IMG/VR virus record: IMGVR_UViG_2537562172_000002
Span: 1-24,527 of that record
DNA from: a virus
Lineage: Duplodnaviria; Heunggongvirae; Uroviricota; Caudoviricetes
DNA: 24,527 nt
Strand: one strand, 5' to 3'
A program made the translations under genes and the position numbers. The notes under the pieces are model-generated. The model was not told the DNA's origin, searched no databases, and saw only the letters and a program-made list of their open reading frames with translations. This document shows positions 10,917 through 24,527 of this stretch, piece after piece; position 1 is the first letter of the stretch; every line of letters begins with the position of its first letter.

Positions 10917-10933
10917 TTTGGTGGAGAAAGTTG

Positions 10934-11299
10934 ATGCGTGATATTCAGATGGTTCTGGAGCGTTGGGGGGCATGGGCGGCGAGTGATAGTTCAGGCGTTG
11001 ATTATTCACCTATAGCCGCTGGGTTTAAGGGACTTCTTCCCTATACAAGCAAGAAACGCTTGGCTTGTTCGGATAGTGATGCCTTAATTATTGAAGGTTG
11101 TCTTGCTCGTCTAAAGCAAAAAAGGCCGGACGAACATTCGCTTCTTGTTGCCCATTACCTATACGGTATCTCTAAAAGAAAGCTCGCCAAGGCTCGTAAA
11201 AAAGATGAGAAATTGATACGTATAGAAATACAGCTAGCCGAAGGATTTATTGATGGCTGCCTTTCCATGCTAGATCTAACATTAGATTTGGACGTTTAA
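10934..11299 (+). CDS. Q: Late-gene antitermination protein Q (QuuD-like)
   Basis: Begins MRDIQMVLERWGAWAA, as I recall for E. coli QuuD; ggag RBS 7 nt upstream; positioned before the late/lysis region. Confidence 0.85.
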   Translation: MRDIQMVLERWGAWAASDSSGVDYSPIAAGFKGLLPYTSKKRLACSDSDALIIEGCLARLKQKRPDEHSLLVAHYLYGISKRKLAKARKKDEKLIRIEIQLAEGFIDGCLSMLDLTLDLDV

Positions 11300-11300
11300 T

Positions 11301-11326
11301 AATACGCCCCTGCATGGGGCGTATTA
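11301..11326. terminator. Perfect 10-bp hairpin between the convergent Q and KAP genes, possibly a bidirectional terminator
   Basis: aatacgcccc-tgcat-ggggcgtatt followed by T-rich sequence, with A-rich sequence upstream. Confidence 0.6.
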
Positions 11327-11327
11327 T

Positions 11328-12659
11328 TTACTGGATGAATGACATTTGATTAATATATTTTATCAATAACTCTCTGGGTGTAGTACTCCAAAAATTTATG
11401 TGTTCATAATCAGTATAAACATTTGTGAATTTTTTAAGTTCTTCATCACTTTTAGGGGCAAATCGCTCATTAAGAGTAATACTGTCTTTAATTATTCCGA
11501 AGAATACAATCGATATTTCAGGGATTTGCGATCTTCTCTCATAAGAATAAGGTATTTCTTTTATGTTAAGCAGGTCTGCTAAATAAGATATAGATTCAGC
11601 GGTAATTTCTTGTTTTAGTTTTTCCTTGTTACCAAAGCAATGTATGAAGGCAGCTACGACAAAGATCATATTTATTAAAGGATCACTGCTTTTGTTCTCA
11701 TCGTCGTTTAACAGTTGGAAAATGTTAAGATTGCGTGAAAATGTTTGTGTTTCACGTAATGATAAGTTGGTTCGTTGAATTAAATCACGGATAAAGTAAC
11801 CTGATAATCTATTGATTTTATTCAATAAGCTTGTTTTTTCTACAAGGTAATCCCAATATATAACAGAGGCTTTACATACGTTGTGACCATTTATCAAACA
11901 TGTATCTGGAAGCGTGATGGTATATTTTATAAACTTGTCAAGATACTTTTGTGAGTTAATGCTATAACCATAAATATGATTTATAGATGCTTTTAATTGT
12001 TCTGTGTTTGTAACTAAAATAAAAAAGACATTATTGATGTCAAAAATGTGTTTTATTGTTTCAATGACATTTGTTGAAAAACTCGGCTTACATCGGTCTA
12101 ATTCATCAATTATAATTACGATTTTTTGATTTTTTGATATGCTTTCGATGCAGGATTTAAGTGAATTTATGTTTTTCTCTGAGTCCATATGGTCTTCAAG
12201 CAAATTTTCAATAGTCCCATCTATTGCTGCATTGCTTGCTTTCTTCATCGCATCTTGGAATTCTTCGGCAACTTCACTAGCCTCCTGTCGTAAAAACCAA
12301 CCTGCACCAGCTTTTAGTACCGTTTTTAAACCAAAGCGAATTGCAGGAAGAGATCTCTTAATGAAGTGTTGTTTTTCTTCCTCAGGCAAAATGCTGGCAA
12401 TTGCAGAGGTTATGAGAAGTAATGGAGATTCTGCATGATCCCCTTTAAAGGCATCAATATAAACAACTTTAGATTCAGTTTCTTGCTCAATAATGAGATT
12501 TTTCAGTTTGATACTAAATTCTGTTTTCCCTGTTCCCCATGCGCCGTCTATTACCAGTGGTGAAATGTCTGCCTCTGGTTTTAGCAACTTGATGATATTT
12601 TCAGCGATGTTTCTTCGTTGGAACTCGTCACGTTCAGTGAAAGATAGTGTATCTAACAT
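11328..12659 (-). CDS. KAP-family P-loop NTPase (PifA-like), 443 aa
   Basis: Walker A GAWGTGKT (aa 39-46) and Walker B VIIIDELD (aa 181-188); visibly AT-rich compared with flanking phage genes; opposite orientation to Q and the late genes. Confidence 0.85.
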   Translation of the reverse strand: MLDTLSFTERDEFQRRNIAENIIKLLKPEADISPLVIDGAWGTGKTEFSIKLKNLIIEQETESKVVYIDAFKGDHAESPLLLITSAIASILPEEEKQHFIKRSLPAIRFGLKTVLKAGAGWFLRQEASEVAEEFQDAMKKASNAAIDGTIENLLEDHMDSEKNINSLKSCIESISKNQKIVIIIDELDRCKPSFSTNVIETIKHIFDINNVFFILVTNTEQLKASINHIYGYSINSQKYLDKFIKYTITLPDTCLINGHNVCKASVIYWDYLVEKTSLLNKINRLSGYFIRDLIQRTNLSLRETQTFSRNLNIFQLLNDDENKSSDPLINMIFVVAAFIHCFGNKEKLKQEITAESISYLADLLNIKEIPYSYERRSQIPEISIVFFGIIKDSITLNERFAPKSDEELKKFTNVYTDYEHINFWSTTPRELLIKYINQMSFIQ

Positions 12660-12781
12660 AATATAAACCTATTAACTCCTACAGTAAAAAACGAATAATA
12701 CGACTTTGGGATTAAAAATCATTAACGCGGTCCGCAAAAATTCTTGTAATCTGTTAAGAGTGTTACTTCGCCACACAGCTT

Positions 12782-12808
12782 AAACCCGCTGTCGAGCGGG
12801 TTTTTTTG
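12782..12808 (+). terminator. Plus-strand intrinsic terminator (candidate tR'-like element)
   Basis: Hairpin aaacccgct-gtcg-agcgggttt followed by a run of seven T; no plus-strand ORF immediately upstream. Confidence 0.55.
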
Positions 12809-12930
12809 TACCTGTAAACCTGGTGCAGTACGGTAAACACGCTGGTGGTAGTGAATACTGATTTTTTATCTTGCTGGCTTTTTAGACAAGAGTTATTGGT
12901 ATGTCATGTTAACCATGAAGGTAAAAAGAC

Positions 12931-13125
12931 ATGCTAAAACAGCAAGATATGACAGAAACGGCGAAAGTGGTTTTTAATGAATTAAGCATCGAACCGGCAA
13001 CAGTCGGGGAGATTGCACAAAACACATACCTTTCACGCGAACGCTGTCAGTTAATACTGACCCAGTTGGTTATGGCGGGGCTGGCAGATTACCAGTTCGG
13101 CTGTTACAGACGCCTTCAGCAATGA
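12931..13125 (+). CDS. Small hypothetical protein, 64 aa, possible winged-helix
   Basis: ATG with weak gaaggt RBS; helical-looking translation; function unknown. Confidence 0.4.
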   Translation: MLKQQDMTETAKVVFNELSIEPATVGEIAQNTYLSRERCQLILTQLVMAGLADYQFGCYRRLQQ

Positions 13126-13274: not shown

Positions 13275-14327
13275 ATGAAAAATACTGTAAAAATAAACAG
13301 TGTTGATTTAATCAACGCTGATTGCCTGCATTTTATTCAGTCCCTGCCTGATGATTCCATTGACCTGATTGTTACCGATCCGCCGTACTTCAAGGTGAAA
13401 CCCAACGGCTGGGACAATCAGTGGAAAGGGGACGAAGATTACCTGAAGTGGCTGGACCACTGTCTGGCTCAGTTCTGGCGGGTGCTGAAACCTGCCGGAA
13501 GCCTTTACCTGTTCTGTGGACATCGCCTCGCATCTGATATCGAGATCATGATGCGTGAACGTTTCAACGTTCTTAACCATATTATCTGGGCGAAGCCGTC
13601 CGGACGATGGAACGGGTGTAATAAAGAAAGTCTGCGCGCATATTTTCCCGCAACAGAACGCGTTCTGTTTGCTGAACATTACCAGGGGCCATATCGCGGC
13701 AAAAGTGACGGCTATGCGGCAAAAGAAAGTCAACTCAAACAGCACATAATGGCACCGCTGATTTCGTATTTCAGGGATGCTCGTGCCGAACTGGGTATAA
13801 CGGCAAAACAGATTGCCGAAGCCACTGGTAAGAAAAACATGGTTTCCCACTGGTTTGGTGCCAGTCAGTGGCAGTTGCCGAATGAGGCTGACTACCGGAA
13901 GTTGCAGGCACTGTTTTCCCGTATAGCGGCAGAGAAGTTTCAGGAACAACAACTGGAACAACCACACCACCAGCTGGTGGCATCTTATGATTCACTGAAT
14001 CGCAAATATTCTGAATTGCTGGATGAGTTTAAAACTCTCCGGCGCTATTTCTCCGTATCAGTTTCCGTGCCTTATACCGACGTCTGGACGCATAAACCCG
14101 TTCAGTTCTACCCGGGTAAACATCCGTGTGAGAAGCCTGCGGATATGCTCCGGCAAATAATCAATGCCAGTAGTCGACCAGGCGATCTGGTTGCTGATTT
14201 TTTTATGGGATCCGGTTCCACAATAAAAGCAGCAATGGCGCTGGGGCGTCGGGCCTTAGGTGTTGAGCTTGAGTCAGAGCGGTTTAACCAGACGGTGAAA
14301 GAGATAAACGAGCTGGTGGGGAAATAA
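13275..14327 (+). CDS. DNA methyltransferase, beta-class N6-adenine/N4-cytosine type, 350 aa
   Basis: Motif IV DPPY (IVTDPPYF) near the N-terminus and motif I FFMGSGST near the C-terminus; no adjacent restriction endonuclease gene. Confidence 0.9.
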
Positions 14328-15978: not shown

Positions 15979-16599
15979 ATGAAAGATCAAGATGTTAGGT
16001 TCGCGGTGCATCATAAGCTTTTGAAAGAATCGCATTTAGATCCTGACTGCCTTGTGGTCGATGAATTTTCCATATCCCTTGGCGCCAGTAGAGCAGACAT
16101 TGCTGTAATAAATGGTGTTATACACGGGTACGAGCTCAAAAGTGAATATGACTCTTTGGAGCGTTTGCCTCTTCAAATCAAGCATTATTCTTCTGTAATG
16201 GACAAGGTTACTCTTGTCGTAGCTGAGAAACATCTTGAGGGAGCATTAAAGTTAATCCCAGGTTGGTGGGGCGTTAAAACGGTTTCTGTTGGGCCAAAAG
16301 GCGCCATTCTTATAAAGCACATGCGTGGAGAAAAGCTTAATCGAAACCATAACTCATTGATGCTCGCTCAATTGCTTTGGAAAGATGAATGTATCGACGT
16401 ACTTGAACGATGGGGCTATTCCAAAGGAATCAAAAGCAAGCCCCGATTTGAGTTATGGAATATTATTGCGGAAAATATTCCAATAGCGAATCTCAGGCTT
16501 GAAGTCAGAACAGCCTTAAAGAAACGCGTAGGCTGGAAAGTTAAGGCTTGGCAGGCTGAGTCTGCGCCAACCAATAAAGCTGTCTCACGACTAACGTAA
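15979..16599 (+). CDS. PD-(D/E)xK nuclease-fold protein, 206 aa (recalls the sce7726-type family; not verified)
   Basis: Candidate catalytic residues E29, D40 and E52-x-K54 (VVDEF ... RADIAVINGVIHGYELK); own promoter-like signals; 3' end overlaps the convergent partner gene. Confidence 0.75.
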   Translation: MKDQDVRFAVHHKLLKESHLDPDCLVVDEFSISLGASRADIAVINGVIHGYELKSEYDSLERLPLQIKHYSSVMDKVTLVVAEKHLEGALKLIPGWWGVKTVSVGPKGAILIKHMRGEKLNRNHNSLMLAQLLWKDECIDVLERWGYSKGIKSKPRFELWNIIAENIPIANLRLEVRTALKKRVGWKVKAWQAESAPTNKAVSRLT

Positions 16600-17608
16600 T
16601 ATGGTGCGTATGTGCAACTTTACGCCATTCTTTAGAGCCGCCAGATTTGTTAGCGCCTAATGATCTTTGGTAAATGTAATCATCCCCCCAACTAAATTTG
16701 GAGCCAAAGACGTGATACTCTGGCGAACTAACAAGGGTAGTACATAAGTTTTTAGTTTGGCCCCATCCATTTCCTTTAACTGCGGTACCTTTTACAAAGA
16801 TCCATGAGGTATCGTTCGAATATCTCACTGAGACATACTGAGACATGAAGCGTGGGTCTACGCTCGTAATGGTAGAGCTAGCGGTGGGATAATCACTAAA
16901 ACTTGGCGTTCTTCCATTGCTAAAATTCTGTACTACATACATCCAAAGATCGTATTCATGGCGCGGAATATGATGAACTTGATGTTGCGGTATCCCTGCC
17001 TGTGATGCAGGGTATGCGGTTGAAGATAAAATCAAGTTTCTCCACGGAGCTTGGCCTGATAATGTGTTGACCATGCTTAATGCTTGTTGTTTTAAACTAT
17101 CAGTTGCGTTTTGAATATCTCCAAAATCAATGATTACATCAATTAAACTAGGATGAATATTTAAGTGGTTAACCAGACTTGTGAATTGGTGCCATGTCTG
17201 GGGGGTGATAGATATAGCGAGCCCATTGATTAAGTTGCGTTGAACAGCATGTATATAGTTTGTTGAATATGCGGGAGAGACAACAGGGATAATTTCCTTA
17301 CCATTTACTCTAGCATCTTGGATACACATATCTAGAGGATGATGGCGGCTCGAACCATGTTTATCTAAATATTTAACATCCAGCAAAACAGGACGATTGG
17401 CTTTCCAGGATGCCGCAAGGTTAATACCGAAGTCAGATAAGTAAGAACTCAAACTCTTCTTGTAGCATTCGTTTTCATAATCCCAGTCTATGTCTGGAAT
17501 GGTAATGATCGGAGTAAAACCAGAGAGCGTAGTTTGATCTAAAAGCATCAGAGATTCATATTCAGCAGGCTTCCATTTCAGCTGTGGGTAATATTGATGT
17601 TGACTCAT
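16541..17608 (-). CDS. Uncharacterised 355-aa protein, partner of the nuclease-like gene (recalls the sce7725 / beta-protein family; not verified)
   Basis: aaggag RBS 5 nt upstream of the ATG; -10-like TATACT and a palindrome upstream; no motif I can assign by eye. Confidence 0.75.
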   Translation of the reverse strand: MSQHQYYPQLKWKPAEYESLMLLDQTTLSGFTPIITIPDIDWDYENECYKKSLSSYLSDFGINLAASWKANRPVLLDVKYLDKHGSSRHHPLDMCIQDARVNGKEIIPVVSPAYSTNYIHAVQRNLINGLAISITPQTWHQFTSLVNHLNIHPSLIDVIIDFGDIQNATDSLKQQALSMVNTLSGQAPWRNLILSSTAYPASQAGIPQHQVHHIPRHEYDLWMYVVQNFSNGRTPSFSDYPTASSTITSVDPRFMSQYVSVRYSNDTSWIFVKGTAVKGNGWGQTKNLCTTLVSSPEYHVFGSKFSWGDDYIYQRSLGANKSGGSKEWRKVAHTHHITLVVRQLYWLAQTQPAKP

Positions 17609-17651
17609 TAAAACTCCTTAAAATCTTTACTTATCCTAAGTATAGTGTTAT

Positions 17652-17664
17652 GGCGTAACGCCAA
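17652..17664. promoter_or_regulatory. Palindrome TGGCGTaACGCCA in the promoter region of the 355-aa gene
   Basis: 6-bp inverted arms around a central A, lying between candidate -35 and -10 elements of the minus-strand gene. Confidence 0.45.
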
Positions 17665-17799
17665 TTGTTTTTATACACTTGAAAACATTGGGAAAAGTTG
17701 AGCTATATCTAAATTTACAAAATTGGATGTTATAGAAATCGAGGTTTCAACTAGGCATGGAACTGCAAAATTTTTAATGCCTGCACGCGAAAGTCGTTG

Positions 17800-18020
17800 G
17801 CGGGTCCTTTCCGGCGATCCGACAGGTTACGGGGCGGCGACCTCGCGGGTTTTCGCTATTTATGAAAATTTTCCGGTTTAAGGCGTTTCCGTTCTTCTTC
17901 GTCGTAACTTAATGTTTTTATTTAAAATACCCCCTGAAAAGAAAGGAAACGACAGGTGCTGAAAACGAGCTTTTGGGCCTTTGTCGTTTCCTTTCTCTGT
18001 TTTTGGCCGTGGAATGAACA
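17800..18020 (+). other. Lambda-type cos site (cosQ/cosN/cosB); 12-nt cohesive-end sequence GGGCGGCGACCT at 17832-17843
   Basis: ...GATCCGACAGGTTACG immediately followed by GGGCGGCGACCTCGCGGGTTTTCGCTATTTATGAAAATTTTCCGG..., matching the joined right and left ends of phage lambda as I recall them. Confidence 0.85.
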
Positions 18021-18566
18021 ATGGAAGTCAACAAAAAGCAGCTGGCTGACATTTTCGGTGCGAGTATCCGTACCATTCAGAACTGGCAGGAACAGGGAAT
18101 GCCCGTTCTGCGAGGCGGTGGCAAGGGTAATGAGGTGCTTTATGACTCTGCCGCCGTCATAAAATGGTATGCCGAAAGGGATGCTGAAATTGAGAACGAA
18201 AAGCTGCGCCGGGAGGTTGAAGAACTGCGGCAGGCCAGCGAGGCAGATCTCCAGCCAGGGACTATTGAGTACGAACGCCATCGACTTACGCGTGCGCAGG
18301 CCGACGCACAGGAACTGAAGAATGCCAGAGACTCCGCTGAAGTGGTGGAAACCGCATTCTGTACTTTCGTGTTGTCGCGGATCGCAGGTGAAATTGCCAG
18401 TATTCTCGACGGGATCCCCCTGTCGGTGCAGCGGCGTTTTCCGGAACTGGAAAACCGACATGTTGATTTCCTGAAACGGGATATCATCAAAGCCATGAAC
18501 AAAGCAGCCGCGCTGGATGAACTGATACCGGGGTTGCTGAGTGAATATATCGAACAGTCAGGTTAA
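18021..18566 (+). CDS. nu1: Terminase small subunit Nu1, 181 aa
   Basis: MEVNKKQLADIFGASIRTIQNWQEQGMPVLRGGGKGNEVLYDSAAVIKWYAERDAEIENEKLRR... is near-identical to lambda Nu1 over its whole length. Confidence 0.95.
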   Translation: MEVNKKQLADIFGASIRTIQNWQEQGMPVLRGGGKGNEVLYDSAAVIKWYAERDAEIENEKLRREVEELRQASEADLQPGTIEYERHRLTRAQADAQELKNARDSAEVVETAFCTFVLSRIAGEIASILDGIPLSVQRRFPELENRHVDFLKRDIIKAMNKAAALDELIPGLLSEYIEQSG

Positions 18567-18807
18567 CAGGCTGCGGCATTTTGTCCGCGCCGGGCTTCGC
18601 TCACTGTTCAGGCCGGAGCCACAGACCGCCGTTGAATGGGCGGATGCCAATTACTATCTCCCGAAAGAATCCGCATACCAGGAAGGGCGCTGGGAAACAC
18701 TGCCCTTTCAGCGGGCCATCATGAATGCGATGGGCAGCGACTACATCCGCGAGGTGAATGTGGTGAAGTCTGCCCGTGTCGGTTATCCGACAGGAAACAC
18801 TGAATGA
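18541..18807 (+). pseudogene. A: Terminase large subunit A, truncated after codon 82
   Basis: First 82 residues (MNISNSQVNRLRHFVRAG...KSARVGY) match lambda gpA; the frame then reads PTGNTE and stops. Junction near 18786 at a TATCC microhomology. Confidence 0.85.
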
Positions 18808-19810
18808 ATGCACCCGTGCGGAGCAGTCGGCCAGCGTGGTGCTCTGGGAAATCGACCTGACAGAGGTCGGTGGAGAACGTTATTTTTTCTGTAATGAGCA
18901 GAACGAAAAAGGTGAGCCGGTCACCTGGCAGGGGCGACAGTATCAGCCGTATCCCATTCAGGGGAGTGGTTTTGAACTGAATGGCAAAGGCACCAGTACG
19001 CGCCCCACGCTGACGGTTTCTAACCTGTACGGTATCGGTGCCGGTATTGAGAACACCCCTGACGGCATGCAGAGTCAGGTGCTGCTGGCAGCAGACAGGA
19101 TTGCGATGATTAATCCTGCGAATGGCAACACAAAGCCGATGTTTGTTGGTCAGGGCGATCAGATATTCATGAATGAAGTGTTCCTGAAACGCCTGACGGC
19201 CCCCACCATTACCAGCGGCGGTAATCCTCCGGCATTTTCCCTGACATCAGACGGGAGACTGACGGCGAAAAATGCGGATATCAGTGGCAGTGTGAATGCG
19301 AACTCAGGAACGCTCAACAATGTCACGATTAACCAGAACTGTACGATTAAGGGCATGCTGGAGGCGACCCAGGTCAGAGGAGATTTCGTTAAAGCTGTAT
19401 CAAAAGCCTTCCCGAAAAAAGTCGGTACGTGGGGTAACACGGAAACACCAAACGGTACGGTTACAGTCACCATCAGCGATGATCATAACTTTGACCGCCA
19501 GATTATTATTCCGCCCATTATTTTTAACGGTATAGCGTATGACGATCCGGGGAGCGGAAATAACCCAGGAGGCACGCGATACACGGGTTATGGTTTTGAA
19601 GTTCGCAAAAACGGCGTATTAATCGCATCCAGAGAAACTAAAGGGGCCATTCCCGGTAGTTACAGTGCAGTTATTGATATGCCGAGTGGCAGGGGAAGCG
19701 TCACTCTGGAGTTTAAGATTTTCCAGAAAGGCAATCAGGGGGCAGGCAATATCACCGACTGTACGGTGATTGTGACCAAAAAAGCCGCTTCCGGCATCAG
19801 TATTCGTTGA
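18776..19810 (+). pseudogene. In-frame fusion remnant: tail protein L N-terminus (~86 aa) joined to the C-terminal receptor-binding region of a J-like host-specificity protein
   Basis: ...[35 protein letters not shown]...TLTVSNLYG matches lambda L; the remainder ([22 protein letters not shown]...DDHNFDRQI...[10 protein letters not shown]...[10 protein letters not shown]) resembles the lambda J C-terminus; no RBS at the GTG. Confidence 0.65.
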
Positions 19811-23500: not shown

Positions 23501-23943
23501 TGGGGACGAAAACCACATCGTCGTTTGATTACGGCACTAAATCCACGAATAACACTGGTGCGCATACCCATAGTTTAAGTGGCAGCACGAATGCAGCTGG
23601 TAATCACAGCCATAGAGATGGCCGTCGATTTAACCCCAGTGTTTTTAAAGATACTTATCAATATGGTTATACAAGCTCAGGTCAAAATACCTGGGGTGTA
23701 CAAGGCTCAGTAGGTATGTCTACGGGGTGGTTAGCTAATACCAGTACAGATGGTAATCATAGCCACTCACTGTCCGGCACAGCAGCATCTGCAGGTGCAC
23801 ACGCGCATACTGTCGGTATTGGTGCTCATACGCACTCCGTTGCGATTGGTTCACATGGACACACCATCACCGTTAACGCTGCTGGTAACGCGGAAAACAC
23901 CGTCAAAAACATCGCATTTAACTATATTGTGAGGCTTGCATAA
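20545..23943 (+). CDS. stf: Side tail fibre protein (lambda Stf family), about 1132 aa
   Basis: N-terminus [26 protein letters not shown] and C-terminus ...[31 protein letters not shown] match lambda Stf as recalled; His-x-His repeats near the C-terminus. Confidence 0.9.
20900..21950 (+). repeat. Low-complexity Ala/Ser/Thr-rich repeat region inside stf, with recurring KTSETNA-like units
   Basis: GCN-rich codon repeats; generate long spurious ORFs in other frames and on the opposite strand. Confidence 0.7.
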
Positions 23944-24527
23944 TGGCATTCAGAATGAGTGAACAACCACGGACCATAAAAATTTATAATCTGCTGGCCG
24001 GAACTAATGAATTTATTGGTGAAGGTGACGCATATATTCCGCCTCATACAGGTCTGCCAGCAAACAGTACCGATATTGCACCGCCAGATATTCCGGCTGG
24101 CTTTGTGGCTGTTTTCAACAGTGATGAGGCATCGTGGCATCTCGTTGAAGATCATCGGGGAAAAACCGTCTATGACGTGGCTTCCGGCGACGCGTTATTT
24201 ATTTCTGAACTTGGCTCGTTACCGGAAAATGTCACCTGGTTATCGCCGGAAGGGGAATATCAGAAGTGGAACGGCACAGCCTGGGTGAAGGATACGGAAG
24301 CAGAAAAACTGTTCCGGATCCGGGAGGCGGAAGAAACAAAAAACAACCTGATGCAGGTAGCCAGTGAGCATATTGCGCCACTTCAGGATGCTGCAGATCT
24401 GGAAATCGCAACGGAGGAAGAAAACTCGTTGCTGGAAGCCTGGAAAAAGTATCGGGTGTTGCTGAACCGTGTTAATACAACAACTGCACCTGATATTGAG
24501 TGGCCTACGAACCCTGTCAGGGAGTAA
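23943..24527 (+). CDS. tfa: Tail fibre assembly protein, 194 aa
   Basis: ATG overlaps stf stop (TAATG); position and size match lambda Tfa; the ORF ends exactly at the window end. Confidence 0.9.

Follow-up and report, generated by a model that had tools for sequence, protein, structure and literature searches.

Between the antiterminator gene Q and the late genes of a lambdoid prophage lies an AT-rich gene for a P-loop ATPase of the KAP family, and the locus raises the question of what this gene does there and whether it is part of the phage backbone. The window, i.e. the whole stretch of DNA that was analysed, comprises the 24,527 nucleotides of IMG/VR virus record IMGVR_UViG_2537562172_000002 (Caudoviricetes), a prophage integrated beside proA and tRNA-Thr of Escherichia coli. 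An earlier sequence-only reading had suggested a horizontally acquired defence gene akin to PifA of the F plasmid, at the place where Shiga toxin (Stx) phages carry their toxin cargo. Our analysis demonstrated that the gene is a self-contained cassette of one gene, exchanged horizontally and equipped with its own leader, open reading frame (ORF) and 3' hairpin, which occupies a variable slot between Q and a conserved backbone block. With a probability of roughly 55% we regard its product as a single-gene anti-phage ATPase that is expressed in the lysogen, encoded in a slot between Q and the probable late promoter/terminator.

The KAP gene and the borders of its cassette

The cassette and its two anchors consist of the following elements:

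11328..12659, minus strand: KAP-family P-loop NTPase gene, 443 amino acids (aa), ATG start, soluble product
10931..11299, plus strand: antiterminator Q gene, 122 aa, left anchor of the slot (Pfam Phage_antitermQ, E=1.8e-52)
11298..11328, no strand assigned: perfect hairpin between the convergent stops of Q and the KAP gene, AATAATACGCCCC tgcat GGGGCGTATTATT
12660..12713, minus strand: cassette-specific 5' leader with the probable KAP promoter, inferred from sequence
12714..12810, plus strand: conserved phage-backbone block, right anchor of the slot

Both Walker motifs that the sequence-only reading had seen in the 443-aa minus-strand ORF are present, Walker A (GAWGTGKT) at residues 39-46 and Walker B (IVIIIDELD) at residues 180-188, and the residues G39, G42, G44, K45, D185, E186, D188 and R189 are invariant across 35 homologues. 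A hidden Markov model search confirmed the proposed family: the Pfam profile KAP_NTPase (PF07693) matched with E=4.9e-71 and 239.8 bits against a gathering cut-off of 20, and residues 15-317 aligned to model positions 1-292 of 293. With such a match, a chance ORF is ruled out. As had been described, the gene converges with Q and lies on the strand opposite to the lysis genes. Its AT-richness, previously judged by eye, was borne out by calculation, since the G+C content is 0.33 both for the ORF and for the cassette (11300-12712) compared with 0.49 for the remaining window, with a value of 0.28 at third codon positions (GC3). The ORF is the lowest-GC stretch of 1332 nt in the 24.5-kb window (window mean 0.478, standard deviation 0.054).

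The interval bearing the cassette was found with 100% identity in four complete E. coli genomes, strain CRE10 among them, where the gene is labelled 'KAP family NTPase' in RefSeq. An intact copy was present in 50 of 5426 complete E. coli genomes. A full-length ORF is retained in E. coli, Salmonella, Citrobacter and Yokenella; the relatives in Salmonella (92% identity) and Citrobacter (65%) occupy the same position after DUF968-Q. Between the E. coli and Salmonella alleles the ratio of non-synonymous to synonymous substitution rates (dN/dS) amounted to 0.15 over the whole gene, with 0.07 for the ATPase part and 0.36-0.58 for the C-terminal part. Judged from these sequence comparisons, the gene is functional and under purifying selection. 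A search of 72,556 plasmids revealed three full-length relatives only, all other matches being confined to the ATPase core with about 25% identity. Deposited phages did not contain the gene and matched the backbone block only. An Rfam search of the whole window identified no RNA family in or near the cassette. In the Salmonella prophage with the 92% allele, a gene for an LRR-NEL effector (SspH-type E3 ligase) is located just upstream of DUF968-Q (locus L004, 9062-11428).

The Q protein of the window is 73% identical to Q of phage PhiR5_1. On the Q side the cassette ends with the perfect hairpin already noticed in the sequence-only reading: two arms of 13 nt (11298-11310 and 11316-11328), 100% complementary, enclose a loop of 5 nt and overlap the stop codons of Q (11297-11299) and of the KAP gene (11328-11330). 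The hairpin has a predicted folding energy of about -22 kcal/mol and is kept in all KAP-bearing loci, with a compensatory change from ACG..CGT in E. coli and Salmonella to ATG..CAT in Citrobacter. A consensus terminator scan did not flag it. It is part of the KAP cassette and probably terminates transcription in both directions.

In the leader, a -10-like TATTAT is located at 12700-12695 and an AGG 8 nt ahead of the ATG; the GTAT core of the -10-like element is conserved in the cassettes from E. coli, Salmonella, Citrobacter and Yokenella. A consensus promoter scan of the region returned 7 sites with 7.7 expected by chance, and therefore the promoters were assigned by conservation and position rather than by the scan.

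The right anchor contains a -35-like TTAACG (12722-12727), a -10-like TGTAAT (12745-12750), a second -10-like AAGAGT (12756-12761) and, according to the terminator scan, a terminator stem (12782-12803) followed by a T run. The consensus from 83 distinct copies is strongly conserved and reads AAAAATCAcTAACGCGGTCCGC-AAAAAttaTGTAATCTGTTAAGAGTGGTTACTTCGCCACACAGCTTAAA, then a GC-rich hairpin and a T run. In PhiR5_1 and in three empty sites (L085, L089, L130) this block directly adjoins the Q stop codon, and in the K-12 prophage DLP12 it lies about 120 nt upstream of essD. Because of its place against Q in empty sites and upstream of the lysis genes, together with the promoter-like, second -10-like and terminator layout, the block is probably a Q-dependent late promoter with a short leader and a terminator. 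As the block of PhiR5_1 begins at the Q stop, the inserted cassette extends from about 11300 to 12713. The interval 11301-12810 first taken as the insert was thus right for the most part, except for the last ~97 nt at the right (12714-12810), which are conserved phage backbone.

Architecture of the KAP protein

The PADLOC model PDC-S20 (PDLC04956) matched the KAP protein end-to-end with E=4.8e-177 and 587.9 bits, residues 3-442 being aligned to model positions 4-449 of 450. By sequence the protein is therefore a member of the KAP family and of PDC-S20, an already catalogued kind. The PADLOC models of PifA (6e-18) and QatA (5e-12) matched the ATPase core only, and PHROGs places the protein in a family of unknown function.

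Two modules can be distinguished, an ATPase (about residues 1-263) and a variable, all-helical part (about 264-443). The AlphaFold model, calculated with 35 homologues, was confident (pLDDT 80, pTM 0.75) except for residues 113-154. These residues form an insert between the Walker motifs which is well conserved in spite of its low model confidence. Just before this insert, residues 99-116 form a conserved cationic amphipathic segment with a hydrophobic moment of 0.58 and a net charge of +5. Inserted transmembrane helices in the NTPase domain are frequent, if not universal, among prokaryotic KAP members. The check for such helices recommended by the sequence-only reading was negative: the KAP protein contains no transmembrane segment, the highest 19-residue Kyte-Doolittle mean being 1.53, and none lies between the Walker motifs.

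The predicted fold resembles solved KAP-domain proteins, with RdrA as the closest structural relative. When PDB sequences were searched with the family profile, no match reached E<=0.01. Homologues share about 60% identity with the protein across residues 1-260 and 23% across residues 321-443, and the C-terminal 126 residues found only 5 matches in 1.84 billion representative proteins. An enzymatic effector domain was not detectable in the protein. In short, it combines a conserved ATPase switch with a clade-specific helical module that lacks a recognisable enzymatic effector. A conserved ATPase joined to a hypervariable C-terminus is typical of sensors in conflict systems.

A paralogous clade of the KAP NTPase sits at the accessory position between CI and integrase in P2/186-like prophages. 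In five E. coli prophages of this kind (L009-L013) a 44%-identical KAP NTPase is encoded on the same strand as its flanking genes, the CI repressor with a 61-aa YdcA-like ORF on one side and the integrase on the other. The shared strand with repressor and integrase suggests co-expression of this paralogue with the repressor in lysogens. The cI-int position was described as a defence hotspot in a P2-related phage of Vibrio (PMC9122126).

A variable slot between Q and the conserved block

The surroundings of Q were surveyed at 160 loci encoding relatives of the window Q, 111 of which have the block downstream of Q. Since the best 80 matches from each of two collections were used, the sample is no unbiased census. 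Cassette types were defined from simple ORF calls clustered at 30% identity. From the slot statistics we excluded two Yersinia loci whose gaps exceed 3 kb and contain metabolic genes, as they are probably spurious block matches. Four loci with an enterobacterial Q stem from assemblies labelled Bacillus, Actinomycetes, Vagococcus and Chryseobacterium (L014, L020, L027, L028), which probably reflects contamination or mis-binning.

About 7 of the 111 junctions were empty. The others contained cargo of 0.46-2.7 kb in discrete size classes; its 54 protein clusters form cassettes of one to three genes, of which at least 30 types were distinguished. Nearly all cargo ORFs (156 of 161, 97%) are convergent with Q, and each of the 76 distinct occupied slots is lower in G+C than both of its flanks (mean 0.374 vs 0.518 and 0.490, p=3.6e-14). 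Every cassette type has its own GC-rich hairpin directly after the Q stop, whereas empty sites have none. Seven cassette types were found next to Q genes 89-95% identical to that of the window, and KAP cassettes are paired with Q variants of 82 to 100% identity. The KAP cassette fits this slot in all respects: it reaches from the Q stop to the block, is convergent, AT-richer than its flanks and equipped with its own hairpin by the Q stop. It is the third commonest type, with 14 loci, a constant slot length of 1411-1418 bp and one ORF, in agreement with the single gene initially proposed. Truncated KAP copies were detected in two related loci (L095, L124).

Among the other occupants PADLOC identified PD-Lambda-5_A (1.5e-164), TIR-TM (1e-57) and an HNH effector/PDC-M68A, and further matches concerned PDC-S42, PDC-S49, PDC-M66B and PDC-S33. 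Other occupants contain NA37 nucleoid-protein, SDH-protease or DUF6731 domains, and many have no annotation. The suggestion that the KAP gene plausibly serves in defence gains support from this company, i.e. from known defence systems in the same slot elsewhere, and from the full-length PDC-S20 match, both at the level of sequence. The slot of a Pseudescherichia metagenome-assembled genome (L023) encodes a distinct 564-aa KAP/NB-ARC-like P-loop protein with a match to PDC-S49 (1e-20), and thus KAP-like ATPases were recruited to this site at least twice.

The two commonest occupants had no PADLOC match. One (C0+C1; L105-L110, L116-L123 and others) encodes a 313-aa DUF6731 protein and a 149-aa multi-pass membrane protein, the other (C2; L098, L139-L143 and others) a 336-aa protein without a Pfam match; both cassettes are candidate uncharacterised systems. 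In the Stx2a phage WGPS2 (L175, 2389-3952) and in the serotype-converting Shigella phage SfIV (L003, 960-2382) the slot contains in each case two minus-strand genes of unknown function, also without a PADLOC match.

Cargo at this site has long been known from the porin gene lc/nmpC of phage PA-2 and DLP12, which occupies the same slot and is likewise convergent, the order in K-12 DLP12 being quuD, nmpC on the opposite strand, the block and essD. Its product, an outer-membrane porin, is unrelated to the KAP protein and represents classical lysogenic-conversion cargo adjoining Q. The presence of nmpC implies a slot that predates intracellular defence and extends beyond it. In the literature searched we came across no account of the Q-block junction as a hotspot or as a slot for defence cassettes, and Vassallo 2022 and the papers on HepS and svsR do not mention KAP proteins or the Q-junction site.

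The surrounding prophage

Downstream of the block the plus strand encodes a 64-aa ORF, a DNA methylase, a P21-type holin, a lysozyme and Rz. The first two of these genes and three genes of a second accessory block after the lysis genes (15979-18461, G+C 0.39-0.44) are:

12931-13125, plus strand: 64-aa ORF, the first gene past the block; PHROG 331 of unknown function, weak winged-helix similarity
13275-14327, plus strand: DNA methyltransferase of the late operon, about 600 bp from the KAP gene
Second accessory block, plus strand: 206-aa protein, PADLOC 'cll' match (3e-31)
Second accessory block, minus strand: 355-aa Beta_protein (PF14350), PADLOC 'beta' and PD-Lambda-2_C (5e-32)
Second accessory block, minus strand: 179-aa ORF, no match

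A counterpart of the 64-aa ORF is present at the same place in WGPS2. From its sequence matches, the second accessory block may be a defence cassette of the gop-beta-cll or PD-Lambda-2 kind. In a 344-aa ORF at 18776-19810, the N-terminus of minor tail protein L is joined to the tail-tip and C-terminal receptor-binding domains of J. Between Rz and this L/J fusion ORF there are no genes for terminase, portal, capsid or tail tube, and the prophage of the window is therefore deleted and defective. CRE10 contains the identical KAP cassette together with a full morphogenesis region. Within the tail-fibre assembly gene at 23943-24527, a full-length Rfam match to IS009 (226 bits) was located at 24286-24484.

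Proposed function and alternative explanations

Position and sequence argue that the KAP gene is probably an anti-phage defence gene of the lysogen. Its site upstream of the probable late promoter and its convergence with Q place it outside the late transcript. We infer that it would be expressed in the lysogen from its own promoter, located within 12660-12730, and that its product would shield the lysogen from other phages. A phage-encoded trigger would be recognised or bound by the variable C-terminal helical module, and the N-terminal ATPase would act as a nucleotide-dependent switch that may oligomerise by analogy with RdrA. Once activated, the assembly would block the infecting phage. The output step is the weakest part of this proposal. 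Since the protein shows no enzymatic effector domain, the candidate outputs are that it sequesters a phage or host factor, consumes ATP, or perturbs the membrane via residues 99-116, the last of them in loose analogy with PifA.

A role in lysogenic conversion or prophage maintenance without phage defence, for example as a regulator of host physiology or induction or as an addiction-like module, appears unlikely to us. Such a role would agree with the porin nmpC/lc as non-immune cargo of the slot and with its many unannotated proteins; moreover, the KAP NTPase family is large and varied in its roles, and the KAP protein has no effector domain. However, the PDC-S20 model stems from a catalogue of defence candidates, validated or strongly predicted defence proteins are among the other slot occupants, the paralogous clade has the CI-integrase accessory position in P2/186-like prophages, and the combination of ATPase and hypervariable C-terminus is that of a conflict-system sensor. 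That the gene is a neutral or decaying passenger without current function is very unlikely. The defective state of the prophage, in which the L/J fusion ORF stands in place of the packaging-to-tail region, and the truncated copies at some related loci would fit a passenger, but the low dN/dS, above all in the ATPase part, the full-length ORF in four genera, the catalytic motifs invariant in all 35 homologues and the compensatory change in the hairpin speak against decay.

Two further explanations concern possible relatives and partners of the protein. As a membrane-associated abortive-infection protein of the PifA type it would exclude T7-like phages. Both proteins share the KAP domain (BLASTP E=4e-16, besides the PifA model match), neither has an obvious partner enzyme, and the cationic segment 99-116 is located where membrane-bound KAP proteins have transmembrane helices. 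We nevertheless regard this explanation as improbable, as the identity is 24% and limited to residues 11-251, the C-terminal half of the 741-aa PifA is unrelated and its gene is accompanied by pifC, the KAP protein contains no transmembrane segment, and the PDC-S20 model fits better than the PifA model by about 160 orders of magnitude. It is hardly conceivable that the KAP protein is a component of a multi-gene system with the DNA methyltransferase or the 64-aa ORF. The methyltransferase is encoded close to the KAP gene, BREX-like and restriction-like systems are known to pair an ATPase with a methylase, and BrxC is among the structural neighbours of the KAP protein. Yet both the methylase and the small ORF belong to the late operon on the opposite strand, the constant slot length fits a single gene, the Salmonella and Citrobacter KAP cassettes occur without the methylase, and methylase and small ORF accompany different cassettes in WGPS2; a link between KAP gene and methylase was rejected on the last two grounds.

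Beyond the anti-phage ATPase favoured here for the single gene, lambdoid prophages of Enterobacterales could have a dedicated exchange site for lysogen-expressed immunity cassettes where Q meets its target promoter, with a functional role for the near-universal layout. We put this forward as a tentative idea that is rather doubtful at present. In the lysogen, the convergent layout and the own hairpin would keep cargo expression out of the lysis operon, and after induction, antiterminated transcription through Q would run antisense into the cargo and switch it off, which is speculation. If true, gene orientation would provide the prophage with self-immunity, the KAP NTPase would be one of the three commonest modules of an exchange platform, and the cassettes with DUF6731 plus small membrane protein and with the 336-aa protein would be new defence systems.

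Comparison with known systems

In WGPS2, which shares the backbone of the window, the gene order is DUF968 gene, Q, two minus-strand genes, block, small ORF, methylase, tRNAs and stx2AB. The toxin genes are located about 2 kb downstream of the block in sense orientation; toxin cargo therefore lies downstream of the block and in sense, unlike the KAP cassette, which is upstream and on the opposite strand. The equation with the toxin-cargo position in the sequence-only reading thus did not hold, and Stx-type late-operon cargo was rejected. The actual Stx position of the window, between methylase end (14327) and holin start (14332), is empty.

The closeness to PifA implied in that reading was also not maintained. 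PifA, responsible for T7 exclusion by the F plasmid, for which the products of gene 1.2 or gene 10 are the trigger, resembles the KAP protein in its KAP NTPase domain with Walker A and B and in the absence of a partner enzyme, but it is a larger, plasmid-encoded protein with an unrelated C-terminal region and its gene lies beside pifC, whereas the KAP protein is encoded by a prophage. No pifC-like gene was found by the KAP gene, whose neighbours are Q and the probable late-promoter block. Orthology with PifA was rejected because the similarity is restricted to the ATPase domain and pifC is missing. Compared with RdrA of RADAR, the KAP protein is about half the size and lacks an adjacent adenosine deaminase RdrB; RADAR was rejected, as the cassette has no second gene and no RdrA profile matched at E<=0.01 in PADLOC. 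QatA of QatABCD shows partial similarity in the ATPase core, but the NCBIfam QatA score of 34.4 bits is far from the cut-off of 600 and QatB, QatC and QatD neighbours are absent, so that QatABCD was rejected as well.

PDC-S20, which the KAP protein matches over its full length and with the same single-gene organisation, is a computational candidate class, for which the literature searched contained no naming paper and no published test. Stand-alone anti-phage proteins of the KAP domain class were validated only in 2026. Single-protein KAP systems shown to defend are EF_KAP of Enterococcus with its relatives (PMC13552941) and Reve from a P4 hotspot (PMC13586616). Like the KAP protein, they consist of one polypeptide with a KAP P-loop domain and a C-terminal region of unknown function. 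In EF_KAP, both Walker B and the C-terminal region are needed (PMC13552941). The comparison was made at the domain level only: in EF_KAP there are two transmembrane helices and the C-terminal region measures 322 aa; the KAP protein has no transmembrane helix and a module of about 180 aa.

Taken together, the slot next to Q could be a place to look for new defence genes of lambdoid prophages, Stx phages included, since the validated PD-Lambda-5, the strongly predicted TIR-TM, nmpC/lc and many unannotated cassettes are found there. By analogy, the KAP protein would in its way of working be most like the single-protein KAP defences validated in 2026. It adds a prophage-borne, transmembrane-free and minimal (443 aa) representative to the KAP NTPases, and its conserved ATPase with a clade-specific helical C-terminus and no effector would offer a compact model for how such switches stop phages.

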